47,473 nucleotides of DNA, from the IMG/VR virus record IMGVR_UViG_3300031134_000639. One strand, 5' to 3'. Position numbers and translations under genes: made by a program. Shown here piece by piece: positions 84 through 32,111 of this stretch. Position 1 is the first letter of the stretch. Each line of letters begins with the position of its first letter. The notes under the pieces are model-generated. The model did not search any database. It worked only from the letters and a program-made list of their open reading frames with translations, and was not told the DNA's origin. Origin of the DNA: a virus. Lineage: Duplodnaviria; Heunggongvirae; Uroviricota; Caudoviricetes.

Positions 84-980
84 ATGTGTAGGACCAAAGA
101 ACTTGGCGGTAGACGCTGTCCTCAACACACTGACCCTGTGAAGCACGCTGCGTATAACGCTCGCCGCCGTGAGTTGTATGCTGCTAAGAAAAACCAGAAG
201 TCGTCTACTCAACCGCTTGAATCTCTTCTCCCTGCGATACACAAAACGCGTGTGTATGGTGTTACTGAAAACTCAAGGTACACTCAGGAGGCTGAAGAAT
301 ACTATGAGAAGATGAAAAAAGAGACTCTGACCGCTTTGAACTCAGATGACTTCTATGTACAAATTATGCTGGATGAACATGATGAACCTGACGAGCTAAT
401 GTCCCTCAACGGTTACAGCACGTCAGGGTATCAAACAATTCGTTCTTACCTTTCACATCCTGATTCCTTTGAGCCTTCTGCCTCTGCAAAGCTAGATAAA
501 ACCATAAAAGGCATTGACTCAGCCATTGAACGTGCGCCTAAAGTTGAACCTCGTCTACTGTACAGAGGAATTAAGATCCCTGCGTTTGTTGAAGATGAAA
601 ACGTTTCGTCATGGGTTGAAGAAAAGTTCCCCGTAGGAGAAGTTATTGCTCAGGATAACTATGTTTCCACAAGCGTTAACCCGTATATGGCCTCATATTT
701 TGGTGAAACCAACTACAATGCTGAAGCCCAGCGTTCCATTCTCATGGAAATTGTTTCTTCCAACGGAGCGCCTTTGGGGGAGGATATATCAGCAAACGCT
801 CACGAACGTGAAATCCTTCTGTCAAGGAAATCCAGATTCAAGATCGTTGCTGTCCACGAGAATGCTGAAGTGCGCATAAATGAAAACATCCTAGGGGCAG
901 GCAAAGGATTTGAATCTGTCAAACCGTTTACTCTCATCCAAGTTGTTGACATAACAGAAAATCAGTACTCTGATTCTTGA
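84..980 (+). CDS. ART1: tagged mono-ADP-ribosyltransferase (VIP2/C2/C3-like)
   Basis: Tag MCRTKELGGRRCPQH; LYRG, YVSTS, HEREILL; SD GGAGG upstream. Confidence 0.9.
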   Translation: MCRTKELGGRRCPQHTDPVKHAAYNARRRELYAAKKNQKSSTQPLESLLPAIHKTRVYGVTENSRYTQEAEEYYEKMKKETLTALNSDDFYVQIMLDEHDEPDELMSLNGYSTSGYQTIRSYLSHPDSFEPSASAKLDKTIKGIDSAIERAPKVEPRLLYRGIKIPAFVEDENVSSWVEEKFPVGEVIAQDNYVSTSVNPYMASYFGETNYNAEAQRSILMEIVSSNGAPLGEDISANAHEREILLSRKSRFKIVAVHENAEVRINENILGAGKGFESVKPFTLIQVVDITENQYSDS

Positions 981-1002
981 CGAGTAGAATAACATCCAAA
1001 CT

Positions 1003-1014
1003 CCGATAGTAATA
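1003..1014 (+). promoter_or_regulatory. CCGATAGTAATA motif, putative phage-specific promoter
   Basis: Exact motif in the gap before ART2; recurs before ART3, ART8, ART14 and ART21. Confidence 0.7.
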
Positions 1015-1045
1015 GCTGTATACCGCAGTCTTAGGAGTCCATGCA

Positions 1046-1945
1046 ATGTGTCGTAGCAAAGAGTTGGGTGGGCGTCGTTGCCCTCAACATACCGACCCTA
1101 CAAAACGTTCTGCGTATAACGCCCGTAGGCGTGAACTGTACGCTTTACGAAAAGCGATTCTAAAGGTTTCACCAGCTGATGCAAGAGAACAACTTCTTTT
1201 GTCTCCTGACGAACCACGCTTGTACACCAACGAAGTTCATGCCGCTGCGTTCATAAAAGAAGCACATGAGTACTATGAGCTAATGATGGAGCAAACTAAG
1301 ACTAAGCTGGGTTCAAAGGATCTTCCTAGCTTGGGCGAAGACTTTGAGTACACAGATGAACCAGATGAGCTACTTGCGTTACATAAATACAGTTCTGATG
1401 GCTACAGGACAATCCGAGAGTATCTTAACGGCAACCTAGCTGCCACTGCCCCGTGGTTGGATGAGAGTAAACTGGAAGCAGAAGTGCAGGGTCTTGACTC
1501 TGCGCTTGAACGTGCACCCGAAGTGGAACCACGTTTACTGTATCGTGGCATTAGGATAACAAGTGACATTCCCAAAGATGAGGTGTCAGGTTGGCTTGCT
1601 GAGAACTTCCCTGTTGGTGGGGTAGTCAGCCAAGCTAACTATGTTTCCACTAGTGTGCACCCTCAGATTGCTGCTAACTTCAGTGATGGTGTGTGGTCAG
1701 ATGACGGCAAGAAGTCTATTGTCATGGAGATTGTCTCCTCAAATGGTGCACCACTAGGGCATGAGATATCTGCTAACCCTGGTGAGTCAGAGGTTCTGCT
1801 TCCTAGGAACTCAAGGTTCAAAGTAGTTGCCGTCCACGAGAACAGCCTTTTCCATGTGAATGACCCGAAGGCGAGTTATGATAACGACTTGTACAGCAAT
1901 GTAACTCTCATCCAAGTAGTTGACGTTACAAACGAAGCTGAATAG
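1046..1945 (+). CDS. ART2: tagged mono-ADP-ribosyltransferase
   Basis: Tag; LYRG, YVSTS, GESEVLL; looks closest to ART1 (DEPDEL, ERAPxVEPRLLYRGI, MEIVSSNGAPLG). Confidence 0.9.
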   Translation: MCRSKELGGRRCPQHTDPTKRSAYNARRRELYALRKAILKVSPADAREQLLLSPDEPRLYTNEVHAAAFIKEAHEYYELMMEQTKTKLGSKDLPSLGEDFEYTDEPDELLALHKYSSDGYRTIREYLNGNLAATAPWLDESKLEAEVQGLDSALERAPEVEPRLLYRGIRITSDIPKDEVSGWLAENFPVGGVVSQANYVSTSVHPQIAANFSDGVWSDDGKKSIVMEIVSSNGAPLGHEISANPGESEVLLPRNSRFKVVAVHENSLFHVNDPKASYDNDLYSNVTLIQVVDVTNEAE

Positions 1946-1955
1946 TATACGTAGT

Positions 1956-1983
1956 TGTCCCCAGAAGAAAACCGATAGTAATA
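1956..1983 (+). promoter_or_regulatory. TGTCCC...CCGATAGTAATA putative promoter of the ART3-ART5 unit
   Basis: TGTCCC 1956-1961, CCGATA 1972-1977. Confidence 0.7.
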
Positions 1984-2014
1984 TCTGGTACCCATTCTTC
2001 ATCGGAGTTTTCTT

Positions 2015-2848
2015 ATGTGTCGCAGTATAGAACTTGGCGGACGACGTTGTCCTTCACACAGTGACCCGTCCGCCACAGCCGCATACAATGCCGTCCGTCG
2101 TCAACGATATGCTGAAGCGAAGAAAACTGGTTCTCCCGTTCTATCTGCTGACTACGATTTCACTCCTCTAGACCAGATGAAGCAACTAGGGGTAACTGAC
2201 CCTAAATTCGTTGAGTTCGTTGACCAAGCTAAAGAGTTCATAGATAAAGTCTACTCTAAAAATTCCAAAGCTAAAACACCTGAAGCAAAAGCTGTCTACG
2301 CTTACACAAACTTGAACTACATTGACATTAGACACCGTATCTACGGAGGTGAGCTTATACATGAGCAGAATGCCTCCAAAGTAGATGCCATGATAGGTAA
2401 CATTGATACTGCTCTTTTGAAAGCTACCCCGCCTGACGAACCGCGTGAACTCTACCGTGGTGTAAGCCTACCTGACCATGTGGCACCTGAAGATGTTAAC
2501 TCATATTTGGCTGAAAATTTCCCTACCGGTGGGGTAATCAGCCAGAAGAACTTCATGTCAACTAGCTTGTCTCCTTCTTTGGCTTCCACCTTTATGGAAA
2601 AAAACCAGAAGCGCTCCAATGGGGTTCTTATTCAGATACTAAGCAAGAAAGGTGCGCCTTTAGGAGGAAAGCTCTCCTGCTTAGGCAACGGAGAAATGGA
2701 AGTGCTGATGCCCCGTGAAGCTAAATTCAAGGTAGCCGAGGTGGTCACAGATATCAAACCAAACGCTGATCCTCATTCTACCGGTAAGCTAGCTCAGATT
2801 ACGCACATTATTCGCTTAGTTGATGTTACAGATGAGGACGAAAGCTGA
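2015..2848 (+). CDS. ART3: tagged mono-ADP-ribosyltransferase
   Basis: Tag MCRSIELGGRRCPSH; LYRG, FMSTS, GEMEVLM. Confidence 0.9.
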   Translation: MCRSIELGGRRCPSHSDPSATAAYNAVRRQRYAEAKKTGSPVLSADYDFTPLDQMKQLGVTDPKFVEFVDQAKEFIDKVYSKNSKAKTPEAKAVYAYTNLNYIDIRHRIYGGELIHEQNASKVDAMIGNIDTALLKATPPDEPRELYRGVSLPDHVAPEDVNSYLAENFPTGGVISQKNFMSTSLSPSLASTFMEKNQKRSNGVLIQILSKKGAPLGGKLSCLGNGEMEVLMPREAKFKVAEVVTDIKPNADPHSTGKLAQITHIIRLVDVTDEDES

Positions 2849-3714
2849 TGTGCCGTACTAAAGAATTGGGTGGAAGACGTTGCCCACAACACACTGACCC
2901 TGTGAAACACGCAGCATATAACGCTCGTCGTCGTGAACTGTACGCTGCCAAAAAGGTTAAGCCTGTTGAAGAGTTCGCATACACGTTTCCTCCTCTTGAT
3001 GTGATTCGCAGGGAGGCCTCTGCTGAGGAGTGGCAGGCATATTGCGAAGACCGCAACAACTTCTCTAACATTATCAACCCTGGCTGGGACGCTGAAGACT
3101 CTAAATGGTCTGACAAAAGATGGGATAGCGCTAAGTGGAAGCCAGAGAAGGCCAAGCTTGATGCAGTTCTATTCTACACAGACGATGGGTTCCCAGAAGT
3201 TCGTAGTTACCTTGAAGGGCTAAACGACCCTGTAGCATTCCACAGCGATGAATATTATGAGAAAGTAGTGAGGAACCTTGACCTTGTCGTCTCTAAAGCA
3301 AAACCGCCTGAGCAGCCACGACGTTTGTACCGTGGTCTTAGCATGCCTAAAGAGCTTGAAGGTGAGCAGGTTGACCAATGGATTGATGAAAGATTCCCTG
3401 TTGATGGCATCATCTCCCAGAAGAACTACATGTCTACGTCTTTGTCTCCAGAGTCAGCTGTTGACTTCTCAAACGTAGACTCTGGAGACTACAGAGAAGG
3501 TAAAGCTGTTGTCTTTGAGATAATGTCTAAGCAGGGTGCTCCCATTGGTGATGGCGTGTCATATCATCAGAACTCTGAACGCGAAGTCCTGATGCCTCGC
3601 AACGCACGATTTAAAGTTGTTGGTGTGCATAAGAAAGTTGTCTTCAATAGCACAGCTTTCATTGCTAAAAGAAATTACGAACACACAGTCATTCAGCTAG
3701 TGGATGCAAGTTAG
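2848..3714 (+). CDS. ART4: tagged mono-ADP-ribosyltransferase
   Basis: Tag; LYRG, YMSTS, SEREVLM; TGATG overlap with ART3. Confidence 0.9.
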   Translation: MCRTKELGGRRCPQHTDPVKHAAYNARRRELYAAKKVKPVEEFAYTFPPLDVIRREASAEEWQAYCEDRNNFSNIINPGWDAEDSKWSDKRWDSAKWKPEKAKLDAVLFYTDDGFPEVRSYLEGLNDPVAFHSDEYYEKVVRNLDLVVSKAKPPEQPRRLYRGLSMPKELEGEQVDQWIDERFPVDGIISQKNYMSTSLSPESAVDFSNVDSGDYREGKAVVFEIMSKQGAPIGDGVSYHQNSEREVLMPRNARFKVVGVHKKVVFNSTAFIAKRNYEHTVIQLVDAS

Positions 3715-3724
3715 GGAGTAGAAA

Positions 3725-4594
3725 ATGTGTCGCACCAAAGAACTTGGCGGGCGTCGTTGCCCTCAGCATACGGATCCTGTAAAACATGCAGCTTACAATG
3801 CTCGTCGCCGTGAACTTTACGCTGAGAAAAAGAAAGTGATGCTGCCTCCTCTAGAAGAGGCTACCACAGCAGAATACGTGTTTCCTCCTCTAGAAGAAGT
3901 ACGCGCTGAACCGTCTAGTTACGATTTGGAATTCTACCGCCAGGATAGGGCTGATTTCTCTAACTCAATCAACCCTGGCTGGGATGCTGATGACTCTACT
4001 TGGGTCCACCATAGGGTTCGTGGACCATGGAAGCCGGAGACAGACAAAAGAGACTCTGTGTTGTACTACACAGATGAGGGCTACAGGGAGATAAGGGACT
4101 ATCTGAACGGTAAAACTGTCACGAAGCCTGATGAGGTGAACGCTATTATGTCTAACCTTGACTCAGCACTTGAGCAAGCTAAGCCACCTGTGGAGCCTCG
4201 TAGGCTTTATCGTGGACTTACTCTTCCTCATGACTTTGAACCTAATCAAGTTCAAGACTGGCTTGGAGAGAACTTCCCCGTAGGCGGTGTCATCAGTCAA
4301 AAGAATTATATGTCAACAACATTGTCCCCAAATGCAGCTGTAGAATTCTCTAAGGCTTATAACAATGACTACAACAATGGCAAGGCTGTCATTTTTGAGA
4401 TCATGTCCAAACAGGGTGCTCCGGTCGGTGAGGGTTTGTCTTATCATGATGATCGCGAACTTGAAGTCCTCATGAAGAGAAACGCCCGGTTTAAAGTTGT
4501 TGCCGTGCACTCGGTAGTCAGTTTTCACAGTAAAAGCTATATTTCAACTAAGAACCTTGACTACACTGTTATCCAGTTGGTTGATGCTGACTAG
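3725..4594 (+). CDS. ART5: tagged mono-ADP-ribosyltransferase
   Basis: Tag; LYRG, YMSTT, RELEVLM; shares FSNxINPGWDAxDSxW with ART4. Confidence 0.9.
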   Translation: MCRTKELGGRRCPQHTDPVKHAAYNARRRELYAEKKKVMLPPLEEATTAEYVFPPLEEVRAEPSSYDLEFYRQDRADFSNSINPGWDADDSTWVHHRVRGPWKPETDKRDSVLYYTDEGYREIRDYLNGKTVTKPDEVNAIMSNLDSALEQAKPPVEPRRLYRGLTLPHDFEPNQVQDWLGENFPVGGVISQKNYMSTTLSPNAAVEFSKAYNNDYNNGKAVIFEIMSKQGAPVGEGLSYHDDRELEVLMKRNARFKVVAVHSVVSFHSKSYISTKNLDYTVIQLVDAD

Positions 4595-4666
4595 GTGAGA
4601 GGCCATATGACCCTCCAGCAGCCTCTGTGCCGGTCGCTGACAAGCTGAAAGAGGGTTCTCGCCCAC

Positions 4667-4678
4667 CCGTAAGTAATA
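4667..4678 (+). promoter_or_regulatory. Variant motif CCGTAAGTAATA upstream of ART6
   Basis: Differs from CCGATAGTAATA only by AT to TA at two adjacent positions; lies in the 144-bp gap before ART6. Confidence 0.45.
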
Positions 4679-4738
4679 AGATACAAGCCGCTTAGAAAGG
4701 CTCTGGCGGCTTAGAAGAACTCTGGAGTAGAACCTGAT

Positions 4739-5668
4739 ATGTGCAGACCCAAAGAGCTTGGCGGTCGTCGCTGTCCTCAACACACTGACCCTGTGAAGCA
4801 CGCTGCGTACAATGCACGACGTAGGGAGTTATATGCTCAGGGCAAAAGGACACCGGAAGCGGTTATCGCTGCTTTTGACTATAGTTTCCCTGCTATGGAT
4901 GCTTTGCGTGTTAATTTGACTAATGAAGAAGAAACTAGAAGGATTGAAAATGCAGTTGCCTTAGCTAAGAAGATAATCCCAGGTTACGATTATCAGGAAG
5001 CTCAAGATGTGCTTTGGTCAGCCGACCACAGAGATTACCAAAGAGATCTAGAGCCTAACCAGGCTTTACTGTTCTACACAGGCGGTCAGTACCGCCTTGT
5101 TCGTAAAGTTATTTTGAATCCTACAAATAAGCTTGATGGTAAAAAGATAATGGTAGATGAAGACTTCCGGTGGATGCAGAGGACATTGACAACAATGGAC
5201 TCCGCAATAGCTGCCGCTGAGGAGCCAGAAGAACCTCGTTTAGTGTATCGCGGAATGAGATTAGATCCCAATGCATCTGATGAGGAGATAGATGCAATGG
5301 TAGACAAAGGGTTCCCTGTAGGCGGCGTGATAAGCCAGGAGAATTACATGTCTACCACCCAGAAGCCTTCTGTTGCTTACCTTCACTTTGGTGACGGGTT
5401 TACTAACAAAAGTGGCGCAGATTCTAAACGTTCTGTTGTGATGGAAATAATGACACGTAAAGGCGCACCGCTAACGTACGGTACTTCCATGTTTCAGGAC
5501 ACGGAGAAAGAAATTCTTATGCCTCGCAATATGAAGCTGAAAATAGTTTCCGTAGACAAAGATGTTGACGTTCAAGTTGAAGGCAGGTATGAGGAAACAA
5601 TAACGGTGAAACGCACAGTTATCCGATTAATTGATGTAGAAGATGACTTAGGAGTAAGCAATGTGTAG
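4739..5668 (+). CDS. ART6: tagged mono-ADP-ribosyltransferase
   Basis: Tag; VYRG, YMSTT, TEKEILM. Confidence 0.9.
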   Translation: MCRPKELGGRRCPQHTDPVKHAAYNARRRELYAQGKRTPEAVIAAFDYSFPAMDALRVNLTNEEETRRIENAVALAKKIIPGYDYQEAQDVLWSADHRDYQRDLEPNQALLFYTGGQYRLVRKVILNPTNKLDGKKIMVDEDFRWMQRTLTTMDSAIAAAEEPEEPRLVYRGMRLDPNASDEEIDAMVDKGFPVGGVISQENYMSTTQKPSVAYLHFGDGFTNKSGADSKRSVVMEIMTRKGAPLTYGTSMFQDTEKEILMPRNMKLKIVSVDKDVDVQVEGRYEETITVKRTVIRLIDVEDDLGVSNV

Positions 5669-6527
5669 AACCGGTGGAAGACGTTGCCCGTCACATAGCG
5701 ACCCTAAAATGGTTACAGAGCGTAACGCCCGACGCCGCGCTGCATATGCTGCTAAAGTTAGCAATGTCATACCTGCTCCGGTATATAATTTCCCTTCAAT
5801 AACGGAGAGTCTGCCGTACATGGATGGTGAAGGAAACAGCCCCGAAGAGAAACAATTCTTCGCTGACCAGAAAGCCTTCTTCGACCTTGTTGACCCTGAC
5901 GCTATCACTGTGCCAGCAGAGAACGAAGACCGAGATCTCACAGAGGAAGAAGCTGAGGAAGCTCGTCTTCGCCATGAAGAGTTCTATACTCTTCGTGACT
6001 ACACTGAGGACAGCTTCAATGATGTGAGAGAGTACCTTATTGACGGTGATATCTTCAATAACGTGGACCATGAAAAGACGGTGGCAAGTCTTGACCGTGC
6101 TATTGCAAAAGCCACCCCTCCTAAGGAGGACCGTGTCCTGTATCGTGGACTGGCTATCCCCGCTGATGTTATAGACGATGAAAGAGTTGACAGTTGGTTG
6201 GAGGAGCGCTTCCCTGTCGGTGGAGTAATCAGCCAGAAAAACTACATGTCAACTAGCGTCAGTCCCTCTGTAGCGAATAATTTCAGTGAGTGGAATAGCT
6301 CAACAGATGACGATGGCATAATCATGCAGATTCTATCCAAAAAAGGTGCACCACTTGGTTTAGGTACATCATACCGTGGCTTAGAAGAAATGGAAGTCCT
6401 CATCCCCCGTGATGCAAAGTTCAAGGTAGTTGAAGTTATCAGGAACACACCGTATGACATTGTTAAGGGTACCAGGACTGTCAGTGAAGAGCGTAAGACA
6501 ATAATCAGGGTTGTTGACGCTAGCTGA
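5661..6527 (+). CDS. ART7: mono-ADP-ribosyltransferase with short tag
   Basis: Short tag MCRTGGRRCPSH; LYRG, YMSTS, EEMEVLI; 8-nt overlap with ART6. Confidence 0.9.
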   Translation: MCRTGGRRCPSHSDPKMVTERNARRRAAYAAKVSNVIPAPVYNFPSITESLPYMDGEGNSPEEKQFFADQKAFFDLVDPDAITVPAENEDRDLTEEEAEEARLRHEEFYTLRDYTEDSFNDVREYLIDGDIFNNVDHEKTVASLDRAIAKATPPKEDRVLYRGLAIPADVIDDERVDSWLEERFPVGGVISQKNYMSTSVSPSVANNFSEWNSSTDDDGIIMQILSKKGAPLGLGTSYRGLEEMEVLIPRDAKFKVVEVIRNTPYDIVKGTRTVSEERKTIIRVVDAS

Positions 6528-6978
6528 AGCGTGCCAAAATGCTGTCACCATGGCCGTTAAAGTGTTCAGTCATGATGAAGCTGTTGTCCTTGAGGAAGCT
6601 AATCAGCTTCCTGTGCTTAGGACTGACTTCAATGTATGTGGTAGCAGCGCCTAAATCCCGAAGATCCCGAGTTACTGTCTCCAACAGTCTCGTGCCATAA
6701 CCTCTACCTGCATAATGCTCTGAAACTTTGAATGTAGAAATCTTTGCTACAGGCATGTTGAAACCATAGCTGTCATTCTCCTGCGGCTTAGTGATAACAA
6801 CAGCAGCATACTCTTGCTGTGAGTTCAATATGACATATGCTTTTCGGGTGGAATCAATGCTGACCTTGTTAGTCCATGCTTCAAAATTATCGTACGCATA
6901 TTGTAGTGAACCGAAGATGGGGTCATCCCAGTTGACTTCGCTTGTAGATAGCGTCATTATCTTAGGCACAGTCAGCAT
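6520..6978 (-). CDS. GNAT-family acetyltransferase (start may be the ATG at 6957)
   Basis: Motif A ISTFKVSEHYAGRGYGTRLLE, then IEVSPKHRKLISFLKDNSF. Confidence 0.75.
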   Translation of the reverse strand: MLTVPKIMTLSTSEVNWDDPIFGSLQYAYDNFEAWTNKVSIDSTRKAYVILNSQQEYAAVVITKPQENDSYGFNMPVAKISTFKVSEHYAGRGYGTRLLETVTRDLRDLGAATTYIEVSPKHRKLISFLKDNSFIMTEHFNGHGDSILARFS

Positions 6979-7090
6979 CTCCAGCGTCTACATGCTTGCA
7001 GAAAATTGTGGGACTAAAGCAGCTATTTTGTGACTTCAAAAGATTCCAATCAGAGTTTTGTTTCAGTTCAGCTAAGAACTTACCTTTCAT
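6962..7090 (-). CDS. Small hypothetical protein (42 aa, MKGKFLAELKQ...), absent from the ORF track
   Basis: Own translation; TGATG-coupled to an upstream open fragment, and stops 4 nt before the ATG at 6957. Confidence 0.35.
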   Translation of the reverse strand: MKGKFLAELKQNSDWNLLKSQNSCFSPTIFCKHVDAGDADCA

Positions 7091-7178
7091 CATACCATAT
7101 TCTTATCACCCCAGCGAACCATAACCTTATGTATGTCGGCCTTATCTAATTCGGTTGGATTCTTGACTGCATTACCGG

Positions 7179-7210
7179 TGTCCCCTCAGCAGAGAAAACC
7201 GATAGTAATA
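7179..7210 (+). promoter_or_regulatory. TGTCCC...CCGATAGTAATA putative promoter of the ART8-ART13 unit
   Basis: TGTCCC 7179-7184, CCGATA 7199-7204. Confidence 0.7.
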
Positions 7211-7239
7211 CATAGTACGTTCAACAAGTTAGGGTAATG

Positions 7240-8118
7240 ATGTGTAGAGCCGGTGGAAGACGCTGCCCGTCTAGTAGCGACCCTGCACTTGCAGCTGACC
7301 GGAACAAGCGCAGGCGAGACCTTTACGCTTCCAAGAAAAGCATGTTTGGCGTAACACAGTTCCCATCTTTGAATGAGAACCACCCATTTGTTGACATTAA
7401 TGGCGACTCACCTGAAGCCTTAGCTTACAAGCAGGCAACAAGAGAATACGTTCAGGCTATAAGAGACCATTATCATGGTAACCCGGTGAAGATAGAGGAG
7501 ATAGAATCCGCTGTCGGTTACTATACTGTTGACGGGTACGAAGAAATTCGTGATTACCTGAACAACTACCAAGTAGCTTCTTCAGGCAAAGAAAAACGTG
7601 TTGTTTACCTTCCTGAAGAGCTAGAGTTTCTGTCTCAACAGATTGAGATTTTAGATGATGTTCTTAAACTCTCCCCTAAGCCATCCGAATCACGTCTACT
7701 GTACCGTGGGCTGGTTGTGCCTCGCAATGTTAGCGAAGCTGACGTAGACAACTGGGCTGAAGATAAGTTCCCGGTCGGAGGGGTTATCAGCCAAAAGAAC
7801 TACATGTCCACCACAGCAAATGCTTCCACTGCATTGTATGAGTTCGCAAGTGATTCCTCCGACCGTTCTGTTATTTTTGAGATCCTTTCCAAAGAAGGTG
7901 CACCTTTAGGCGATGGGTTATCTTATCAAGGAGACTCTGAGATGGAAGTGCTCATGCCGAGGGAAACAAAATTCAAGGTTGTTTCAGTAGACAAAAATGT
8001 AGCTTATGAGAGTGAACAAAAAGCTCATTCTTACGGGCTTGGTGGCCCTCCAGTGTATGAGAAAGAAACAAGGATAGTCACAGTTATTCGTTTGATAGAT
8101 GCAGGAGATGCTAGCTGA
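7240..8118 (+). CDS. ART8: mono-ADP-ribosyltransferase with short tag
   Basis: MCRAGGRRCPSS; LYRG, YMSTT, SEMEVLM; the second of two tandem ATGs matches the paralog starts. Confidence 0.9.
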   Translation: MCRAGGRRCPSSSDPALAADRNKRRRDLYASKKSMFGVTQFPSLNENHPFVDINGDSPEALAYKQATREYVQAIRDHYHGNPVKIEEIESAVGYYTVDGYEEIRDYLNNYQVASSGKEKRVVYLPEELEFLSQQIEILDDVLKLSPKPSESRLLYRGLVVPRNVSEADVDNWAEDKFPVGGVISQKNYMSTTANASTALYEFASDSSDRSVIFEILSKEGAPLGDGLSYQGDSEMEVLMPRETKFKVVSVDKNVAYESEQKAHSYGLGGPPVYEKETRIVTVIRLIDAGDAS

Positions 8119-8996
8119 TGTGCCGTACTAAAGAACTTGGTGGAAGGCGCTGTCCTCAACACACTGACCCTGTGAAGCATGCCGCCTATAATGCTCGTCG
8201 CCGTGAGTTGTATGCAGCTAAGAAAGGCCAGTCTACCTTAAACCCTCTGGATATGTTCCTGCCTTTAGATGCAGTTCGCAGTAGCAGAAAAGGTGATAAA
8301 AGTCTCCGAGCTTCATTGAACCATGACAGTAAAGTTTTCTTTGACTCTCTAGACTCTAAACTCAACGACGAAGAATGGAGTGACTACCAAAGCAAAATTT
8401 ATTTCAATGAAGATGGCAACAACCAGCAGTTGGCTTTGCTTTCCTACACTCACGTCAATTTTTCACACATCCGTGATTATCTGTATGGTACAAAAATAAG
8501 TTCTAGCGGGGACAAACATGTTGTCAAGCCAGAAAAAAGAGCATACTTTGCAGAGACTGTCCAACTGATGGACTCTGCTTTAGAAAAAGCTGTCCCGCCT
8601 AAGACGCCTAGACTTGTGTATCGTGGTTTGAAAATACCCCATCGGGTTGACAATGTTGATTCATGGCTTGACGAAAACTTCCCTGTCGGTGGTGTGGTAA
8701 GTCACAAGTCTTATCTTTCTACTTCAGCTGACCCTGAGACAGCTTTGAAGTTCAGCACCCCACCAATAGGCACGAACAAAGGTGTAGTCATTGAGATGGT
8801 GACTCGCCAGGGTGCATCTCTAGGAAAAGGTACCTCACACTTTGGGAACCTGGAGATGGAAGTGTTAATGCCCAGAGATGCAAAGTTTGTTGTGCACAGT
8901 GTTGACCGTGATGTAGACTACCAATACACTTACAAAGGTGAAGTCAAAACCGGTAAACGCCATATTGTGCGATTCATAGATGAGGGAACTAACTAA
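8118..8996 (+). CDS. ART9: tagged mono-ADP-ribosyltransferase
   Basis: Tag; VYRG, YLSTS, LEMEVLM. Confidence 0.9.
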   Translation: MCRTKELGGRRCPQHTDPVKHAAYNARRRELYAAKKGQSTLNPLDMFLPLDAVRSSRKGDKSLRASLNHDSKVFFDSLDSKLNDEEWSDYQSKIYFNEDGNNQQLALLSYTHVNFSHIRDYLYGTKISSSGDKHVVKPEKRAYFAETVQLMDSALEKAVPPKTPRLVYRGLKIPHRVDNVDSWLDENFPVGGVVSHKSYLSTSADPETALKFSTPPIGTNKGVVIEMVTRQGASLGKGTSHFGNLEMEVLMPRDAKFVVHSVDRDVDYQYTYKGEVKTGKRHIVRFIDEGTN

Positions 8997-9928
8997 TGTG
9001 TAGACCTAAAGAGCTTGGTGGTAGACGCTGCCCTCAGCACACTGACCCTGTGAAACACGCTGCCTACAACGCCCGACGACGCGAACTGTACGCGGCTCAG
9101 AAGCAGGAGAATCAGAAGCCTGAAATTATTTTCCCAGAACTTAGCTTCCTGAGACCATTCTTCACTCTAGAATCAGGAGTAGGACTAGAATACTCAAAGC
9201 AATCAGCTGAGTTCCTTAACACCCTTGACCCAGACTTTGATATAAGCAACTGGGAAGAAAACTATGGTGAGGATGTTTGGGAGGAACGCTTCCCCGACTT
9301 TGGTGAGATGGATGAACGCAAGAGTGTTGAATACTACACTGAGATGGGTCACTATTACATGGGACAGTACTTACAGGATGAAGCCACTGACGGTGAGTTC
9401 TCTGACTTCAAGTATGAGGGTAAACCCTTACACCGTCAGTATGTTATGGATGCTGTCGCTAAAGTAGACTCCGCTTTAGCTAAATCCGATAAGCCTGACT
9501 CAGCTAGAATGCTTTACCGTGGAATGAAAGTTCCCTCCGAAGTACCTTTAGATGAGGTTCCCTCCTGGCTTGCTGAACGTTTCCCTGTTGACGGTGTTGT
9601 GTCGCAGCCAAACTTCATGTCTACTACTTTGAACCCTAAAGTAGCTTCATGGTTCTTCGCTATGGGAAAAGACTCCACTACAAGCCCCGAGAGGGCCGTC
9701 ATCTTTGAGATTATTAGTAAGCAGGGTGCTCCGCTTGGAAGAGGCACTTCCTGTCACGGGTTAGCTGAAGCTGAAGTCCTTCTGCCAAGAGATGCTAAGC
9801 TGAAGGTTGTTTCAGTTGATGAAGGTGCCCCTTTCAAATATGCCACAACAAACGGTGTAGCCGGTGGCCGAAGGACCATTATTCGTATGACTGATGTTGA
9901 AGAAGGAACAGATAATGTGCAGAAATAA
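8996..9928 (+). CDS. ART10: tagged mono-ADP-ribosyltransferase
   Basis: Tag; LYRG, FMSTT, AEAEVLL. Confidence 0.9.
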   Translation: MCRPKELGGRRCPQHTDPVKHAAYNARRRELYAAQKQENQKPEIIFPELSFLRPFFTLESGVGLEYSKQSAEFLNTLDPDFDISNWEENYGEDVWEERFPDFGEMDERKSVEYYTEMGHYYMGQYLQDEATDGEFSDFKYEGKPLHRQYVMDAVAKVDSALAKSDKPDSARMLYRGMKVPSEVPLDEVPSWLAERFPVDGVVSQPNFMSTTLNPKVASWFFAMGKDSTTSPERAVIFEIISKQGAPLGRGTSCHGLAEAEVLLPRDAKLKVVSVDEGAPFKYATTNGVAGGRRTIIRMTDVEEGTDNVQK

Positions 9929-10796
9929 AGAGTCAGGTGGGCGTCGTTGCCCGTCTCATAGCAACCCTGAGTACAGGGCAAGCCTGAATGCTAAGCGTCG
10001 TGAAAAGTATGCTGCCAATAAAGTATTGGTACCTACTACACCTTCTCCTTTCGCGCCCATCAGCGAGAGACGCCTGCTACCTGGTATCGAAGATACAATG
10101 GCTTTCCACAAACAGTCAGACTATCTAAGAGACAACCTTGACTTCCAGCCAGAAGACTGGGAAGAGCATAAAGAAGACGAAGACAACTGGGCACCAGACA
10201 TACTCATGACAGACGCTATTCTCTACTACACTGGGGAAGGCTCTGATGCAATCAAATATCATCTAGACAACGTTGAAACCTCCCTCTCCGGTGGTGACCT
10301 TCACCAGCAAGCCATCGTAGCTAACCTTGACTCCGTCTTTGCTTTGATGCCTGAGCTAGAGGAACCAAGAACAGTGTACCGAGGTATGAAGATACCTTCC
10401 TCTGTAGGAAAAGGTGATGAGAAAGAGCAAGAACAGGCCGTCTCAGAGTGGCTGGATAAAAACTTCCCTGTAGGCAGCGTAGTCAGTCAGAAGAACTATA
10501 TGTCTACCACGTTAGAACCAAACATTGCAATCGGTTTCGCTGAAAGCTTTGACCGTGACGCTAACCTTCACTGTGTAGTGTTTGAGATAAACTCCAAACA
10601 GGGTGTCGCTGTAGGAGAAGGAGTATCCTACCAAGACTTTTATGAAAAAGAAGTGTTGATGCCCCGTCAGGCAAGGTTCAAGGTTGCGCAAGTTTACAAG
10701 GGGACTGACTTCCATTATGAGGCCTCAGGCAGACGAGAGGCGTCAACGAACCTGACAGTGATTCAGCTGGTCGATGCAGATGAGGACAACAGCTAA
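9915..10796 (+). CDS. ART11: tagged mono-ADP-ribosyltransferase
   Basis: Start moved to ATG 9915 (MCRNKESGGRRCPSH); VYRG, YMSTT, YEKEVLM. Confidence 0.9.
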   Translation: MCRNKESGGRRCPSHSNPEYRASLNAKRREKYAANKVLVPTTPSPFAPISERRLLPGIEDTMAFHKQSDYLRDNLDFQPEDWEEHKEDEDNWAPDILMTDAILYYTGEGSDAIKYHLDNVETSLSGGDLHQQAIVANLDSVFALMPELEEPRTVYRGMKIPSSVGKGDEKEQEQAVSEWLDKNFPVGSVVSQKNYMSTTLEPNIAIGFAESFDRDANLHCVVFEINSKQGVAVGEGVSYQDFYEKEVLMPRQARFKVAQVYKGTDFHYEASGRREASTNLTVIQLVDADEDNS

Positions 10797-11707
10797 TGTG
10801 CCGGACTAAAGAACTGGGTGGTAGACGCTGTCCACAGCATACTGATCCTGTGAAGCACGCAGCATATAATGCCCGTCGTCGTGAGCTTTATGCTGCCAAG
10901 AAGAAACCTAAAGCGGATGCTCTCCCAGCACAGTTTCCTGTTCTAGATGCCTTGCGGGTATACCCGGGAACGGATGAATACAATGCTTACCACACTTCAG
11001 CTGTTGAGTTGGCAAAGAAGTATATCCCTGGGTACGACGAAACACGTGCTTCAAGTGAATATTATTCTGCTGACATAGGAACTGATGAATATTCTCCACT
11101 TAACGCAGTCATGTTGTATACGTCTCATCTTCACAGGTTCATTAAAGCGTTCCTTCATGGTGAGAATCCAGAGGATTCCAAATTTGACTTCTTTGATAAA
11201 CCCGCCGCGTGGTATAAGCAGAACATTGATGCTTTAGACGAATTCATAAGTAATGCAGATGAGCCTAATGAGCCTCGCATGCTTTACCGTGGGTTGAAAC
11301 TACCTCAGATGGAAAGTGGTGAAGTAGATTCATATCTGGAAGAGCATTTCCCAGTGGGAGGTGTTATCAGTCAGAAAAACTATATGTCCACAAGTTTAAA
11401 TGCTGACGTTGGCTATGGTGGTTTTAGTGACGCTGTAGACAAGGAAAAATTCGCTGTTGACCCTAAGAGAAGTATTGTGTTTGAGATTGTCTCCAAACAA
11501 GGTGCTCCACTAACTTATGGTACTTCAACCTATGGAGAAGATGAGACAGAAGTTTTGATGCCAAGAGATGCCAAATTTAAGGTTCTATCTGTTCATAAAG
11601 AACAACCTGTTACCTATTATGGTAACCCCAGATTCTCTGCTTTCACTGAACAGCAGACAACTAAAACTATCATCCGACTTGTGGATGCTGAAGGAGATGA
11701 AAACTGA
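10796..11707 (+). CDS. ART12: tagged mono-ADP-ribosyltransferase
   Basis: Tag; LYRG, YMSTS, DETEVLM. Confidence 0.9.
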   Translation: MCRTKELGGRRCPQHTDPVKHAAYNARRRELYAAKKKPKADALPAQFPVLDALRVYPGTDEYNAYHTSAVELAKKYIPGYDETRASSEYYSADIGTDEYSPLNAVMLYTSHLHRFIKAFLHGENPEDSKFDFFDKPAAWYKQNIDALDEFISNADEPNEPRMLYRGLKLPQMESGEVDSYLEEHFPVGGVISQKNYMSTSLNADVGYGGFSDAVDKEKFAVDPKRSIVFEIVSKQGAPLTYGTSTYGEDETEVLMPRDAKFKVLSVHKEQPVTYYGNPRFSAFTEQQTTKTIIRLVDAEGDEN

Positions 11708-12609
11708 TGTGTCGCAGTAAAGAACTCGGTGGCAGACGGTGCTCAAGCGCTCACGACCCTGAGAAGGTAGCTTCCTACAACGCACGGAGAAGAGAGAAGT
11801 ATGCTCTGACGAAAGTTATTTCTCCTGAGACAGCTGCTTTGTTCGCTCCTCTTCATGAAGTTCATCATCTCACTAAAGACATGGAGAGAAAGCATTGGTC
11901 TGAGGCAGGTGAGTTTGCTGGGAAAGCCAACAAGCTTGCTCTCTGGGACAAGTGGACTATGCCTATCCATTTTGATAACTTAGAGTATGGCGATCCTATG
12001 CAGCCCGAGAATATTCTTCCCTACTACACAGAAGGTGGTTACGAAAAAATATCTAACCACCTCAACGGATTCCGTATGGATGAGAACGACCCTGAACGCC
12101 TAGCACATAATCACACTCCTGAGCAAACAGCTTGGCTAGCAGACGTTGTAACTAAAATGGATGGCCTGCTAGAAAAAGCTACTCCACCTGAGGAACCACG
12201 TGTGTTGTACCGTGGTATGGCAATAAAATATACTGTGAAGAAAAAGGATGTAAGAAATTGGGTTGCCGAGAACTTCCCTGTCGGCGGTGTCATCAGTCAA
12301 AAGTCATACATGTCAACAACTTTGAGTGCTGGTACGGCAAGCAGAAAGTTTGCTTACAGTATAGACCCAACAAGTGATCGTTCGGTAATTATGGAGTTCG
12401 TTACTAAGCAGGGTGCTCCGTTGGGTGAAACAACCTCTTTTCTTGGACAAACAGAGAACGAAGTGCTGATGCCTCGTGAAGCTAAGTTCAAAGTGGTCTC
12501 AGTTAACTATGGCGTACCCTACAAGGTGGGAGCAAACTTTTACACCACGGATAAAGTCTCTGAAGGTAAACGAACTGTCATCCGTCTTGTGGATGCTTCC
12601 GAAGACTAA
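11707..12609 (+). CDS. ART13: tagged mono-ADP-ribosyltransferase
   Basis: Tag MCRSKELGGRRCSSAH; LYRG, YMSTT, TENEVLM. Confidence 0.9.
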   Translation: MCRSKELGGRRCSSAHDPEKVASYNARRREKYALTKVISPETAALFAPLHEVHHLTKDMERKHWSEAGEFAGKANKLALWDKWTMPIHFDNLEYGDPMQPENILPYYTEGGYEKISNHLNGFRMDENDPERLAHNHTPEQTAWLADVVTKMDGLLEKATPPEEPRVLYRGMAIKYTVKKKDVRNWVAENFPVGGVISQKSYMSTTLSAGTASRKFAYSIDPTSDRSVIMEFVTKQGAPLGETTSFLGQTENEVLMPREAKFKVVSVNYGVPYKVGANFYTTDKVSEGKRTVIRLVDASED

Positions 12610-28361: not shown

Positions 28362-28392
28362 TGTCCCCTCTTAAGGAAAACCGATAGTAATA
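28362..28392 (+). promoter_or_regulatory. TGTCCC...CCGATAGTAATA putative promoter opening ART array 2
   Basis: TGTCCC 28362-28367, CCGATA 28381-28386. Confidence 0.7.
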
Positions 28393-28426: not shown

Positions 28427-29281
28427 ATGTGCCGAACCGGTGGTCGCCGCTGTCCTTCATCCACAGACCCTGCACATATAGCAGAATACAACGCTAAGCG
28501 TAGACAAAAGTATGCAGCTAAGACAGGTGGCAAACCATCGTCAGCTTCCAGCCTACAGGCGCTATTTCAGCCTATTGACGAACCAAGGTTTAATGTTCTC
28601 TTTGACCAGGCTGCGATGGACCGTTTCAAGGAGGAGACAGAGCTTTTCCGTTCTGCGATAACAAAACCAGAGTACGAAGTTTTTGACACATACGATGACA
28701 ACTTTGACCCAACAAACTCTGAGCAGGAAGCTTTAATGAGCTACACAGAGAATGGTTACAGGAATGTGCGTGACTATCTTCTTGACCACGAAGGGCAGGT
28801 TGAACCTGGCAGCCATGCAGACAAAGTTATCAGCCTTCTTGACTCCGCTCTGAGACAGGCAACACCTCCAGAGGAATCTAGAATGCTGTACCGTGGCATG
28901 GCTGTACCCCGAGATGTGAAAAATGAGAACGTGACACAGTGGATTGCTGATAAGTTCCCTGTAGGCGGTGTCGTGTCACAGCACAACTACATGTCAACTA
29001 GCTTGTCTTCTTCCACCCCCATAGGTTTTCTTGGTCTACAGTCAGCAGAGGAAGAAAACCGCCGTGTAGTAATGGAGATTGTCTCCAAAAAAGGTGCTCC
29101 CCTGGGAGACAACGTTTCAGTTCATGGTGTAAGCGAAAGCGAAATCCTGATCCCCCGTGATGCCAGGTTCAAAGTAGCCGCAGTACACAGCAAAGTAGAC
29201 TATGTGTACGACGCAGGCCTTGGAGATGCATACGAACTTACTGTTATCCAGCTTGTTGATGCTGAGGAAGAAGAGAAATAA
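28427..29281 (+). CDS. ART14: mono-ADP-ribosyltransferase with short tag
   Basis: MCRTGGRRCPSS; LYRG, YMSTS, SESEILI. Confidence 0.9.
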   Translation: MCRTGGRRCPSSTDPAHIAEYNAKRRQKYAAKTGGKPSSASSLQALFQPIDEPRFNVLFDQAAMDRFKEETELFRSAITKPEYEVFDTYDDNFDPTNSEQEALMSYTENGYRNVRDYLLDHEGQVEPGSHADKVISLLDSALRQATPPEESRMLYRGMAVPRDVKNENVTQWIADKFPVGGVVSQHNYMSTSLSSSTPIGFLGLQSAEEENRRVVMEIVSKKGAPLGDNVSVHGVSESEILIPRDARFKVAAVHSKVDYVYDAGLGDAYELTVIQLVDAEEEEK

Positions 29282-30183
29282 TGTGCCGCAGTAAAGACCT
29301 TGGCGGGCGTCGTTGCCCTCAATACACTGATCCGGTAAAACACGCGGCATATAACGCGCGTCGTCGTGAGCTTTACGCTGCAAGGAAAGCGCCAGCAGAG
29401 GAAGTCACCTTCCTGGACTTCTCTGAAGAGCGCCCATTCTATGATGGTATTCTGTGGCCTCAGGTAGCAAAGTTTGCTGACGAAGCTGAAGCGTTCGCCA
29501 AGATTGTGAACCCAGACTTTGACAGGAAAAGTTGGCGTGACCATATGGGTAGCGAAGTTAGAACATTTGAGACTGAGAACATCAGCGAAGCCGAAGCGCT
29601 AATCTACTATACAGATATGGGCTATACGGACATACGTAACTACCTGGCTCAAGGTACTGTCATGAAGACAAACCGCCGCAAGTACACTGATGAAGAAAAA
29701 GTTTGGATGGACGGTGTCGTATCCAAGATTGACTCGGCTTTAGAGAAAGCACCTAAAGCTAAAGAGCAGAGAACTCTCTACCGTGGTATGCGTATACCCG
29801 CAAGTATTAGCAACATGGATGTTGATGGTTGGATGGACCATGCTTTCCCTGTCGGTGGGGTCATAAGTCAGCCAAGTTACATGTCAACAAGTTTGAACGC
29901 TCACTCAGCTGCTAGCATTTTTGGGGCAAAAATGTCCACAGACACTTCTAGAAGAGCTGTTCTCTTTGAGATTATTTCTAAGCAGGGAACACCTATTGGT
30001 AAAGGCCTGGCTTCCCCCGGTAACCATGAGATGGAAGTTCTTCTGCCACGTAACGCTAAGCTTAAGGTAGCTGAAGTTCATAAAACCGCTCAGTTTTCTT
30101 ATCGTAACCGTTGGAATGGGCTTGACACTGACTATAGAACAGTGATTCGTCTGGTTGATGTAACAGATGAGGATGAAAGCTGA
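29281..30183 (+). CDS. ART15: tagged mono-ADP-ribosyltransferase
   Basis: Tag; LYRG, YMSTS, HEMEVLL. Confidence 0.9.
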   Translation: MCRSKDLGGRRCPQYTDPVKHAAYNARRRELYAARKAPAEEVTFLDFSEERPFYDGILWPQVAKFADEAEAFAKIVNPDFDRKSWRDHMGSEVRTFETENISEAEALIYYTDMGYTDIRNYLAQGTVMKTNRRKYTDEEKVWMDGVVSKIDSALEKAPKAKEQRTLYRGMRIPASISNMDVDGWMDHAFPVGGVISQPSYMSTSLNAHSAASIFGAKMSTDTSRRAVLFEIISKQGTPIGKGLASPGNHEMEVLLPRNAKLKVAEVHKTAQFSYRNRWNGLDTDYRTVIRLVDVTDEDES

Positions 30184-32043: not shown

Positions 32044-32049
32044 CATAGT

Positions 32050-32074: not shown

Positions 32075-32111
32075 GATATGAGTAATACGTTGTTTGACAA
32101 GAAGGAACCTC

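Follow-up and report, generated by a model that had tools for sequence, protein, structure and literature searches.

Among the proteins that bacteriophage T4 injects is the ADP-ribosyltransferase (ART) Alt, and the capsid-targeting sequence (CTS) of this phage comprises about 10 residues, is not known to contain cysteines or an Arg-rich helix, and is cut by the prohead protease once it has bound the scaffold core. In T4, highly diverse counter-defence and takeover proteins share a short conserved N-terminal leader and enter the head, from which they are injected (PMC3012670). ARTs of the Alt/VIP2 type are often fused to MuF (PMC9503650), and ART-PolyVal was named after the polyvalent proteins, which are described as being injected with the DNA (Pfam description; PMC5512222). 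In PVC/eCIS, an N-terminal leader on toxin payloads suffices for loading into a phage-tail-like injection device (PMC11495950, PMC10097599).

The window, that is, the whole 47,473-nucleotide stretch of viral DNA analyzed here, which is part of a giant phage-like genome, contains two arrays of ART genes belonging to the Pfam family PF03496. All of these genes (24/24) open with the same Cys/Arg-rich tag of 33-36 residues. The tags listed below all match a tag HMM.

84..12609, + strand: ART array 1, 13 tagged PF03496 genes with intact R, S-T-S and ExE motifs
84..191, + strand: ART01 tag, long form of 36 residues (gene 84-980)
1046..1153, + strand: ART02 tag, long (gene 1046-1945)
2015..2122, + strand: ART03 tag, long (gene 2015-2848)
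2848..2955, + strand: ART04 tag, long (gene 2848-3714)
3725..3832, + strand: ART05 tag, long (gene 3725-4594)
4739..4846, + strand: ART06 tag, long (gene 4739-5668)
5661..5759, + strand: ART07 tag, short, with Cys2 and Cys9 (gene 5661-6527)
7240..7338, + strand: ART08 tag, short (gene 7240-8118; alternative ATG at 7237)
8118..8225, + strand: ART09 tag, long (gene 8118-8996)
8996..9103, + strand: ART10 tag, long (gene 8996-9928)
9915..10022, + strand: ART11 tag, long and divergent (gene 9915-10796)
10796..10903, + strand: ART12 tag, long (gene 10796-11707)
11707..11814, + strand: ART13 tag, long, with CSSAH replacing CPxH (gene 11707-12609)
28427..38546, + strand: ART array 2, 11 tagged PF03496 genes
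28427..28525, + strand: ART14 tag, short (gene 28427-29281)
29281..29388, + strand: ART15 tag, long (gene 29281-30183)
30183..30290, + strand: ART16 tag, long (gene 30183-31112)
31099..31206, + strand: ART17 tag, long (gene 31099-32043)
32112..32219, + strand: ART18 tag, long (gene 32112-33101)
33094..33201, + strand: ART19 tag, long (gene 33094-34077)
34070..34168, + strand: ART20 tag, short (gene 34070-35005)
35052..35159, + strand: ART21 tag, long (gene 35052-35978)
35978..36085, + strand: ART22 tag, long (gene 35978-36820)
36820..36927, + strand: ART23 tag, long (gene 36820-37671)
37671..37778, + strand: ART24 tag, long (gene 37671-38546)

The consensus of the tag reads M-C-R-(x0/3)-GGRRC-P-x-H-x-D-P and continues into a basic helix, N-A-R-R-R-x-x-Y-A; the first ART gene product, for instance, starts with MCRTKELGGRRCPQHTDPVKHAAYNARRRELYAAKK (84-191). 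Among the ORFs of the window, the tag HMM recovered the 24 ARTs with E-values of 5e-27 to 2e-17 and matched no other real ORF. The initial annotation had described an N-terminal module far more conserved than the sequence after it, and the mean pairwise amino-acid identities among the window ARTs agree with this description: the tag reaches 79%, the catalytic core 42%, and the linker and the middle region 20% each. M1, C2, R3, G8, G9, R10, R11, C12, P18, N25, R28, R29 and Y32 are invariant across the window copies. Thus, the two invariant Cys reported at positions 2 and 12 of the long form were found as such, and the His reported as often present corresponds to His15, which occurs in 19 of the 24 copies. 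The short form, which is three residues shorter, had been correctly assigned to ART07, ART08, ART14 and ART20, but its second Cys (after Cys2) is residue 9 and not residue 8 as had been stated. Residues 1-36 carry a net charge of +4 to +8. AlphaFold2 predicted residues 1-17 as coil (pLDDT 65-71) and residues 18-37 as helix (pLDDT about 85 at the centre), giving one helix per tag, in line with the basic helix annotated earlier. A signal peptide is recognized by a hydrophobic h-region of ~10 or more residues following a basic n-region, with the lipobox Cys thereafter. In the first 60 residues of the window ARTs, uncharged hydrophobic runs reach 6 residues at most, and the tag Cys is residue 2 instead of following an h-region, which rules out a Sec, Tat or lipoprotein signal, as had been noted before.

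At conserved residues with degenerate codons, 55% of the codon pairs differ in the tag, compared with 54-59% in the other parts of the gene. As the synonymous sites of the tag are as diverged as those of the remaining gene, the selection acts on the protein, and neither recent gene conversion nor a DNA/RNA signal lies behind the conservation. We also considered F-P-P-L-D-x-x-R, which is located 8-25 residues past the tag, as a second linear motif, and rejected it; this stretch more probably belongs to the ART domain, as its first structured segment.

The three copies tested matched PF03496 with E-values of 5e-19 to 2e-12 (gathering cut-off of 23.4 bits), and R161, S195-T196 and E241/E243, which represent the Arg, Ser-Thr-Ser and ExE motifs, respectively, are invariant in all 24 ARTs. 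Foldseek retrieved Certhrax, Vis, VIP2, iota Ia and C3 at E-values of 1e-11 to 1e-9. The payloads in the window are C2/C3/VIP2-like R-S-E ARTs of the PF03496 family; an invariant ExE motif is typical of Arg-specific enzymes. ART01 additionally matched the C-terminal part of PHROG 595, which is annotated as 'head maturation protease'. The megablast search of the window against cultured phages yielded no match.

Five bipartite promoter-like motifs precede genes in the two arrays.

1957..1982, + strand: GTCCC-N-CCGATAGTAAT, upstream of ART03
7180..7209, + strand: GTCCC-N-CCGATAGTAAT, upstream of ART08
28363..28391, + strand: GTCCC-N-CCGATAGTAAT, upstream of ART14, at the start of array 2
32051..32079, + strand: CCGATAGATAT variant of the motif, upstream of ART18
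34996..35022, + strand: GTCCC-N-CCGATAGTAAT, upstream of ART21

All occurrences of GTCCC-N9-15-CCGATAG in the window (5/5) are upstream of ART genes, while none is expected by chance; rIIA, the tRNA synthetase gene and other genes are preceded by sigma-70-like extended -10 boxes instead. The promoters of the ART operons form a separate class, which differs from the sigma-70-like type found at rIIA and its neighbours. As far as timing may be judged from the promoter class, these operons do not look like immediate-early genes transcribed by the host RNA polymerase.

Beyond the window, the tag profile matched 194 clusters at E<=1e-3 among 1.84 billion protein cluster representatives, and nearly all of the 150 matches listed start at residue 1. 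Across 147 clusters, C2, R10, C12, N25 and R29 are invariant. His15 (+3 from the second Cys) is present in 97 of them, and 28/147 tags have neither a His nor a third Cys near the knuckle. According to the core HMM, PF03496 ARTs account for 128 of the 150 tagged clusters listed. The other payloads comprise an ART-PolyVal enzyme (PF18760) and a Zeta-toxin kinase, both encoded on a single contig, as well as several orphan families. One of these orphan families, A4 (P0077-like), had no sequence match in PDB, and its search of the ESM Atlas gave weak leads only, namely to AcrIF11, ART-PolyVal and RES. A related contig encodes three tagged ARTs and, after them, an ADP-ribosylglycohydrolase that lacks the tag, an arrangement that fits writers leaving and an eraser staying. 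At every locus examined, the tagged genes are found among accessory genes and do not adjoin head or tail genes; PHROG scans of the genes around the high-GC tagged locus L003 gave no useful match.

The tag itself had no match in Pfam (hmmscan, E<=10), including PF04233 and PF06152, and its profile retrieved only chance-level sirtuin rows (E 1.5) from the PDB sequences at E<=10. The tag is an undescribed module, matched by no Pfam family and no PDB chain. The ESM Atlas search with the tag returned look-alikes that all scored <0.9 and vague zinc-ribbon leads, and tblastn against cultured phages gave chance-level rows only and no carrier. No true tag was found in the IMG/VR scans; two IMG/VR loci matched the helix motif only, in a Lys/Glu-rich protein of a small virus. 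A match in a Kiloniellaceae MAG was discarded as spurious, its frame being an alternative one within a HemN-like gene. Judged from sequence, the tag is portable and confined to the N-terminus, and the effector payloads that it heads are unrelated to one another.

A related knuckle with more Cys is carried by proteins of actinobacterial plasmids. Three or four Cys are present in the knuckles of 12 of the 15 actinobacterial relatives, nearly all of which have a His in addition, and this set of putative ligands fits a metal site. These plasmids have no capsid genes in view, and therefore the module is not capsid-specific in all contexts; the knuckle genes adjoin dnaG, mIHF and FtsK/SpoIIIE genes. 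The AlphaFold2 model of a Gordonia knuckle protein is all-helical and matched no fold in PDB, and its matches in AFDB pointed to a link with capsid proteins. The C-terminal domain of the actinobacterial knuckle proteins shares 46% identity with the C-terminus of gp4 of Streptomyces phage SV1 (E 3e-14), a minor capsid protein 2 (PF06152; MuF-like) whose gene is located between those of the portal and the major capsid protein; the domain has matches in 43 phage records. Since the domain that follows the knuckle in one protein is fused to a minor capsid protein in another, the tag occupies the position of a head-protein fusion on the same kinds of payload.

With only two invariant Cys, and His15 in 97/147 clusters, a self-contained four-ligand zinc site is not universal among the tags. 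The structure prediction for two tag copies with one Zn had a score of 0.03, which counts neither for nor against dimerisation. As for the helix, a single hhalign comparison with STPR-type repeats gave a probability of 66%, with 57% identity over 21 columns and an E-value of 5e-5. Against an STPR-like repeat, 54% of the tags scored above the 99th percentile of composition-matched shuffles, a comparison biased by the fact that the repeat had itself been picked up by the tag profile. The Pfam STPR model (PF21107) did not match the tag (hmmscan, E<=10), and the solved FMBP-1 STPR chain (5D23) was absent from the PDB search with the tag profile at E<=10. The tag helix may resemble the DNA-major-groove-binding STPR repeat beyond composition, which does not imply membership of that family. 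STPR helices lie in the DNA major groove and fold on DNA (PMC4856987). Like the predicted tag helix, the STPR (PF21107; Bombyx FMBP-1, PDB 5D23) is an N-capped helix, ~21 residues long and rich in Arg, Ala and Tyr. An individual STPR repeat would be recognized by an S/T-x-P N-cap, a conserved Arg9 and a basic face bearing Tyr. In contrast, STPRs occur as three to seven tandem repeats of 23 residues, mainly in animals, while the tag helix is a single copy fused to a Cys knuckle.

Altogether, we tentatively propose, at somewhat less than an even chance, that the tag is a delivery handle consisting of a metal knuckle and a nucleic-acid-binding helix. The first part, the Met-Cys...Gly-Gly-Arg-Arg-Cys-Pro-x-His knuckle, would probably hold a metal, perhaps with a ligand supplied by a partner. 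The second part would be an N-capped (S/T-D-P) basic helix of ~20 residues, in which Asn25, Arg28, Arg29 and Tyr32 are predicted to share one face, as in helices that bind nucleic-acid grooves. A short, variable and probably disordered linker would connect the tag to the diverse effector enzymes. The tag would keep the effectors with the element's own DNA or its packaging machinery, and the tagged effectors would be loaded late in infection and reach the next cell together with the DNA, the tag being then the functional equivalent of the MuF/minor-capsid-protein fusions and of the T4 CTS. In this scheme, we infer the binding of metal and of nucleic acid, the late expression, the packaging and the injection, whereas the module itself, its selection at the protein level, its N-terminal position, its range of payloads with their overlap with those of MuF fusions, and the separate promoter class are observed. 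The metal-stabilised DNA- or capsid-binding handle loading the ARTs, which the initial annotation had suggested, survives in part: the comparisons of payloads, STPR, Cys/His patterns and promoter class favour it, while the four-ligand site that is not universal and the relatives on plasmids do not. A bolder version, which we consider rather unlikely, takes the tag as a self-sufficient 'ride with the DNA' signal, in which knuckle and groove helix would clamp the effectors on the element's DNA, and any protein fused to it would be packaged and delivered along with that DNA, by giant phages as well as, with the older form of the knuckle, by actinobacterial plasmids.

An intracellular tether without packaging is a real possibility, if less than probable. 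According to this explanation, the enzymes are made after infection and stay on DNA or RNA (the host nucleoid, phage DNA, the ribosome or tRNA) by means of helix and knuckle, so that many enzymes of different specificity are concentrated at nucleic-acid-bound targets such as RNA polymerase, nucleases or defence complexes. The STPR-like helix with its invariant N/R/R/Y face and the net charge of the tag agree with such a role, and so do the position of the tagged genes among accessory rather than virion genes and the plasmid neighbours of the knuckle relatives (dnaG, mIHF and FtsK/SpoIIIE genes). However, a plain nucleic-acid binder need not begin with Met-Cys at residue 1 in almost every match listed, the overlap in payloads with MuF-fused and polyvalent injected proteins is left unexplained, and a Zeta-type kinase has no obvious use for a DNA tether.

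We regard it as improbable that the tag is a shared control handle, either a site at which one chaperone, inhibitor or protease docks, or a switch that the two Cys operate by redox state or metal, by which one partner would restrain or remove dozens of toxic enzymes. The presence of a single tag on many toxic payloads would suit this explanation, as would the two invariant Cys of an incomplete metal site, which could engage a partner or be joined in a disulfide, and the single untagged eraser gene adjoining tagged writers. On the other hand, no candidate partner gene co-occurs at the loci examined, the invariant helix face is more like a nucleic-acid-binding than a protein-docking surface, and known immunity proteins usually attach to the catalytic domain rather than to a leader.

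The initial annotation had further suggested a release switch, in which each enzyme, once it meets NAD+, ADP-ribosylates its own Arg-rich tag, so that the tag is neutralised and the enzyme freed. This is very improbable, even though T4 Alt and ModB self-modify, the ARTs have the invariant ExE motif, and the window tags have five invariant Arg, three of which are invariant across the 147 clusters. The same tag also heads the Zeta-toxin kinase, the unrelated ART-PolyVal fold and other non-ART domains, including non-enzymatic-looking proteins, and the knuckle heads an all-helical plasmid protein. The conserved function is therefore independent of the PF03496 ART, and we dropped self-modification as the general mechanism of release. 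Finally, conservation at the level of nucleic acid, whether through gene conversion among the tandem copies, an element for translation initiation or a hairpin in the mRNA, is hardly conceivable: the helix-coding DNA is quasi-palindromic (the antisense frame gives AAYNSRRRALYAA) and hairpins of -15 to -20 kcal/mol are obtained from several copies, but the palindrome arises because the peptide A-A-Y-N-A-R-R-R-E-L-Y-A-A has largely self-complementary codons, and an mRNA/DNA hairpin is ruled out by the synonymous divergence given above and by the wobble-to-wobble pairs of the stem, which are complementary in 56/120 cases, no more than in shuffles (P = 0.75).

Should the tag prove to be a signal for loading or delivery, the deployment of dozens of host-modifying enzymes by a giant phage-like element on entry would be explained, and giant phages would be tied to actinobacterial plasmids by a common N-terminal module. 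The tag would then also be a new minimal and portable cargo tag of ~36 residues usable for protein packaging, a use with precedents in the T4 CTS and in the signal peptides of PVC. Even as a nucleic-acid tether only, the tag would be an uncatalogued module on about 190 clusters, and searches with it may lead to new effector families in uncultivated viruses.

Among the described systems, the MuF/minor capsid protein 2 fusions and the polyvalent proteins have the same repertoire of payloads, comprising Alt/VIP2-type ARTs, ART-PolyVal, kinases and the domain shared with SV1 gp4. The MuF polymorphic toxins likewise combine a constant N-terminal part with a varying C-terminal effector (PMC5576092, PMC5512222, PMC9503650). 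In contrast to these fusions, the tag is a peptide of 36 residues and not a head protein domain of 300 residues, and the tagged effectors are separate small genes in arrays of up to 13. The leaders of PVC/eCIS toxins are, by description, N-terminal as the tag is, but PVC payloads depend on the AAA ATPase Pvc15 for loading and are directed to the tube lumen, and neither a Pvc15-like gene nor an eCIS cluster was seen here. As the T4 CTS does, the tag stands at the extreme N-terminus and on several unrelated payloads, whereas it has 33-36 residues, two invariant Cys and no evident cleavage site. If the tag were the 'ride with the DNA' signal, its mode of loading would be distinct from those via the scaffold core (T4), head fusion (MuF) and the tube (eCIS).

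The window, a portion of a large phage-like genome, encodes an rIIA homologue (PHROG 612, E 8e-77) and many orphan genes. Two co-directional arrays comprise 24 paralogous genes of 277-329 codons each (ART01-ART24), all of which were assigned to PF03496 ADP-ribosyltransferases (ARTs). The Arg, Ser-Thr-Ser, and ExE motifs were invariant across the ARTs, and an AlphaFold2 model (pLDDT 87) resembled Certhrax, Vis, VIP2, iota Ia, and C3. The arrays and the genes discussed with them are as follows.

84-12609: ART array 1, 13 genes
28427-38546: ART array 2, 11 genes
6520-6978, minus strand: 152-codon ORF splitting array 1 between ART07 and ART08
13935-14759, plus strand: GNAT-like acetyltransferase between the arrays
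14814-15362 and 43099-44295, plus strand: pilin-like proteins with an N-terminal methylation motif (PF07963)
16635-17162, minus strand: weak match to the HAD domain of 'Swiss Army Knife' RNA-repair proteins, accessory gene between the arrays
17389-17931, minus strand: YceI-like protein, accessory gene between the arrays
20342-21436, plus strand: LRV/HEAT repeat protein, accessory gene between the arrays
26690-27940, minus strand: class II aminoacyl-tRNA synthetase, accessory gene between the arrays

In most ARTs, the last ~12 codons encode acidic C-terminal tails with a net charge down to -6 (e.g. 2815-2848 and 29250-29281), and the GAGGA-type ribosome-binding site for the overlapping gene downstream falls in this same stretch. 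The tails may therefore have arisen as a by-product of the coupled translation, or vice versa.

All of the 24 ARTs open with the tag, a module of 33-36 residues made of a knuckle (M-C-R-(x0/3)-GGRRC-P-x-H-x-D-P) and a basic helix (N-A-R-R-R-x-x-Y-A), and the interval 84-200, to which the initial annotation assigned it, is merely the first copy. AlphaFold2 modeled residues 1-17 as low-confidence coil and residues 18-37 as a helix. The window ARTs were pairwise 79% identical in amino acids over the tag and 42% over the catalytic core, with 20% for both the linker and the middle region, in agreement with the earlier description of a module conserved above what follows. The two Cys at positions 2 and 12 and the list of the copies shorter by three residues (ART7, 8, 14, and 20) were also read correctly, except that the second Cys of the short form is residue 9 and not residue 8. 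The tag has no hydrophobic core and is therefore not an export signal, as had been stated. The GNAT-like acetyltransferase bears a Cys-rich N-terminus of its own (C8, C16, and C21), distinct from the tag.

At conserved positions whose residues have degenerate codons, 55% of the codon pairs differed in the tag versus 54-59% elsewhere. Thus, the copies are old and the tag has been kept by selection on the peptide; both gene conversion and a nucleic-acid signal were rejected as the cause of the conservation, as the codon pairs are as diverged as elsewhere. The helix-coding DNA is a quasi-palindrome, of which the antisense frame gives nearly the same peptide (AAYNSRRRALYAA), a consequence of the largely self-complementary codons of A-A-Y-N-A-R-R-R-E-L-Y-A-A. 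For several of the copies, hairpins with energies of -15 to -20 kcal/mol were predicted, and no excess pairing was found at wobble positions (56/120 complementary, P = 0.75).

125-208, minus strand: antisense near-copy of the helix peptide (also in other copies, e.g. 2829-3173 and 35941-36207)

No description of the module was found in the literature, and neither Pfam families nor PDB chains matched it. A profile built from 17 window tags was searched against 1.84 billion cluster representatives and matched 194 proteins at E<=1e-3 (82 at E<=1e-10), with residue 1 being the start of nearly all matches listed. Over 147 tag clusters, C2, R10, C12, N25, and R29 were invariant and M1, R3, G8, G9, P13, P18, R28, and Y32 nearly so, while the His after the second Cys was found in 97, the substitutes being mostly Gln, Tyr, or Ser. 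PF03496 ARTs accounted for 128 of the best 150 matches. The other payloads among the best 150, that is, the protein parts after the tag, include a Zeta-toxin kinase (P0122), an ART-PolyVal enzyme (PF18760) on the same 24-kb contig, and several orphan families, for which Atlas gave only weak leads, some to AcrIF11, ART-PolyVal, or RES and others to kinases of the PolyVal or T7 type. As kinases and non-ART proteins carry the tag, release by auto-ADP-ribosylation, proposed in the initial annotation, cannot be its conserved function, and could be an add-on within ARTs. On a 980-kb JGI metagenomic contig (L002 3621-5858 and 10001-10639), one tagged orphan was accompanied by two ARTs with divergent tags reading MCRGGKDGTIRRC...N-x-R-K-K-V-K-Y, so the profile does not cover the full breadth of the tag family. 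On a related contig (L019 10001-14887), three tandem tagged ARTs are directly followed by an untagged ADP-ribosylglycohydrolase (PF03747). The tag was not found in cultured phages by a nucleotide search with the window or a translated search with the tag. Pilin-like genes and several single-domain FtsK/SpoIIIE ATPases also occur on tag-bearing contigs (L013 15716-16312; L014 9632-10997), and this pairing recurs between contigs.

Relatives of the knuckle were found by scanning species genomes and plasmids. Proteins of Gordonia, Prescottella, Dietzia, and Paenarthrobacter start with MCR-x4-9-G-x-RRCP-x-H-x-[DN]-P followed by a helix, and Rhodococcus plasmids yielded weaker matches. Genes for dnaG, mIHF, and FtsK/SpoIIIE lie near these actinobacterial genes, and on plasmids a small Rmf/CrpP-like gene invariably comes next after the knuckle gene (L006 7092-8328; L007 4810-6070; L009 6001-6997; L010 5001-6279), which looks like a conserved backbone pair. 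We gathered 17 homologues, 15 of which had an intact start; 12 of these 15 possess three or four Cys in the knuckle, nearly all with a His. This is the look of a complete metal site, and the phage tags accordingly resemble a reduced form of it; the Cys-rich actinobacterial relatives appear to be the older. Metal binding by the tag is plausible; with two invariant Cys only, a fourth ligand, if any, must come from elsewhere. The remainder of the actinobacterial proteins was modeled as all-helical by AlphaFold2, with no fold match in the PDB. Their conserved C-terminal domain shares 46% identity (E 3e-14) with the C-terminus of gp4 of Streptomyces phage SV1, a PF06152 'minor capsid protein 2' annotated as MuF-like and encoded between the portal and major capsid protein genes, and matches 43 Streptomyces and Microbacterium phage records.

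In the helix, the i, i+3, i+4, and i+7 spacing of N25, R28, R29, and Y32 places all four on a single face, and the tag bears a net charge of +4 to +8. The profile also matched proteins with the helix motif alone in repeats, for example ten repeats of 23 residues in a Helitron-type protein and five RNA[KR]RRE[KL]YA units in a 226-residue protein. Tandem repeats of the motif alone occur in a small virus protein as well.

P0125 residues 1-255, P0145, and L011 3371-3949: tandem helix-motif repeats (xRNA[KR]RRExYA, or TPEQKAERLARRRELYKAKK)

The Helitron repeats are STPR by Pfam (PF21107, E 1.5e-30) and match the solved STPR domain of FMBP-1 (5D23). Each STPR repeat consists of a two-residue linker and a 21-residue helix along the DNA major groove, with the conserved Arg and Tyr contacting DNA phosphates (PMC4856987). 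Against STPR-type repeats chosen by the tag profile itself, tag columns 16-36 showed 57% identity (hhalign probability 66%), and real tags scored a median of 5.1 bits versus -1.1 for composition-matched shuffles. Neither the Pfam STPR model nor FMBP-1 detected the tag, and STPR has three or more helices whereas the tag has a single one; the likeness seems to be a resemblance, not membership. The resemblance makes nucleic-acid binding the simplest account of the invariant N/R/R/Y face and of the charge.

A bipartite motif, GTCCC-N9-15-CCGATAG(TAAT), was found five times in the window, where none is expected by chance, and each of the five copies precedes an ART gene by about 40-70 nt. As the CCGATAGTAAT box is paired with (T)GTCCC(C) 9-15 nt further upstream, the ART promoter looks bipartite; the copy before ART02 (1003-1013) is without the upstream box. 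Sigma-70-like extended -10 boxes (TG-n-TATAAT type) precede rIIA, the tRNA synthetase, and several other non-ART genes, and none was found upstream of the ART genes in the window.

1957-1982, 7180-7209, 28363-28391, 32051-32079, and 34996-35022: bipartite ART promoter-like motif
40691-40699: sigma-70-like extended -10 box upstream of rIIA
39236-39244, and 27982-27990, 17194-17202, 18726-18734, and 45196-45204 on the minus strand: sigma-70-like extended -10 boxes of non-ART genes
7089-7097, minus strand: sigma-70-like box near the 152-codon ORF

The ART operons thus constitute a separate regulon. Judging from the boxes, they do not look like units of host-polymerase immediate-early transcription; their promoter class would fit late synthesis for loading, albeit being no proof of it.

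At least three kinds of payload carrying the tag occur elsewhere on a head protein or in a polyvalent injected protein. ARTs of the Alt/VIP2 type are head-linked by a match to PHROG 595 'head maturation protease', and their fusions with MuF are known (PMC9503650). ART-PolyVal is named for polyvalent proteins (Pfam description; PMC5512222), and the C-terminal domain shared by the actinobacterial knuckle proteins and SV1 gp4 is the third case. MuF fusions and polyvalent proteins have been read as head-packaged or conjugation-transferred cargo delivered with DNA (PMC5512222, PMC5576092).

We tentatively favor the tag as a delivery or loading handle, probably acting via nucleic-acid binding, as the reading with the widest explanatory reach. 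It accounts for why the tag is strictly N-terminal, why its toxic payloads are unrelated to one another and overlap with those of MuF fusions and polyvalent proteins, why the eraser is untagged, why the promoter class is separate, and why knuckle relatives occur on plasmids moving DNA between cells. The ARTs would be made late, loaded through the tag binding nucleic acid, and delivered. The main rival regards the tag as a nucleic-acid tether that acts solely inside the cell; the location of the tagged genes among accessory genes speaks for it, and we consider it somewhat unlikely. A regulatory handle shared by the tagged proteins seems improbable.

The concept of a common N-terminal leader on diversified effectors is already known. 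The present analysis adds a test of selection at the protein level, a profile of the whole family, a Cys-rich ancestry suggested for the knuckle, a connection to a phage minor capsid protein, the STPR-like character of the helix, and the division between two promoter classes. The tag occupies the same architectural slot as in MuF fusions and polyvalent proteins. In size, chemistry, and probable mechanism, it is unlike the T4 CTS, MuF fusions, and eCIS signals.
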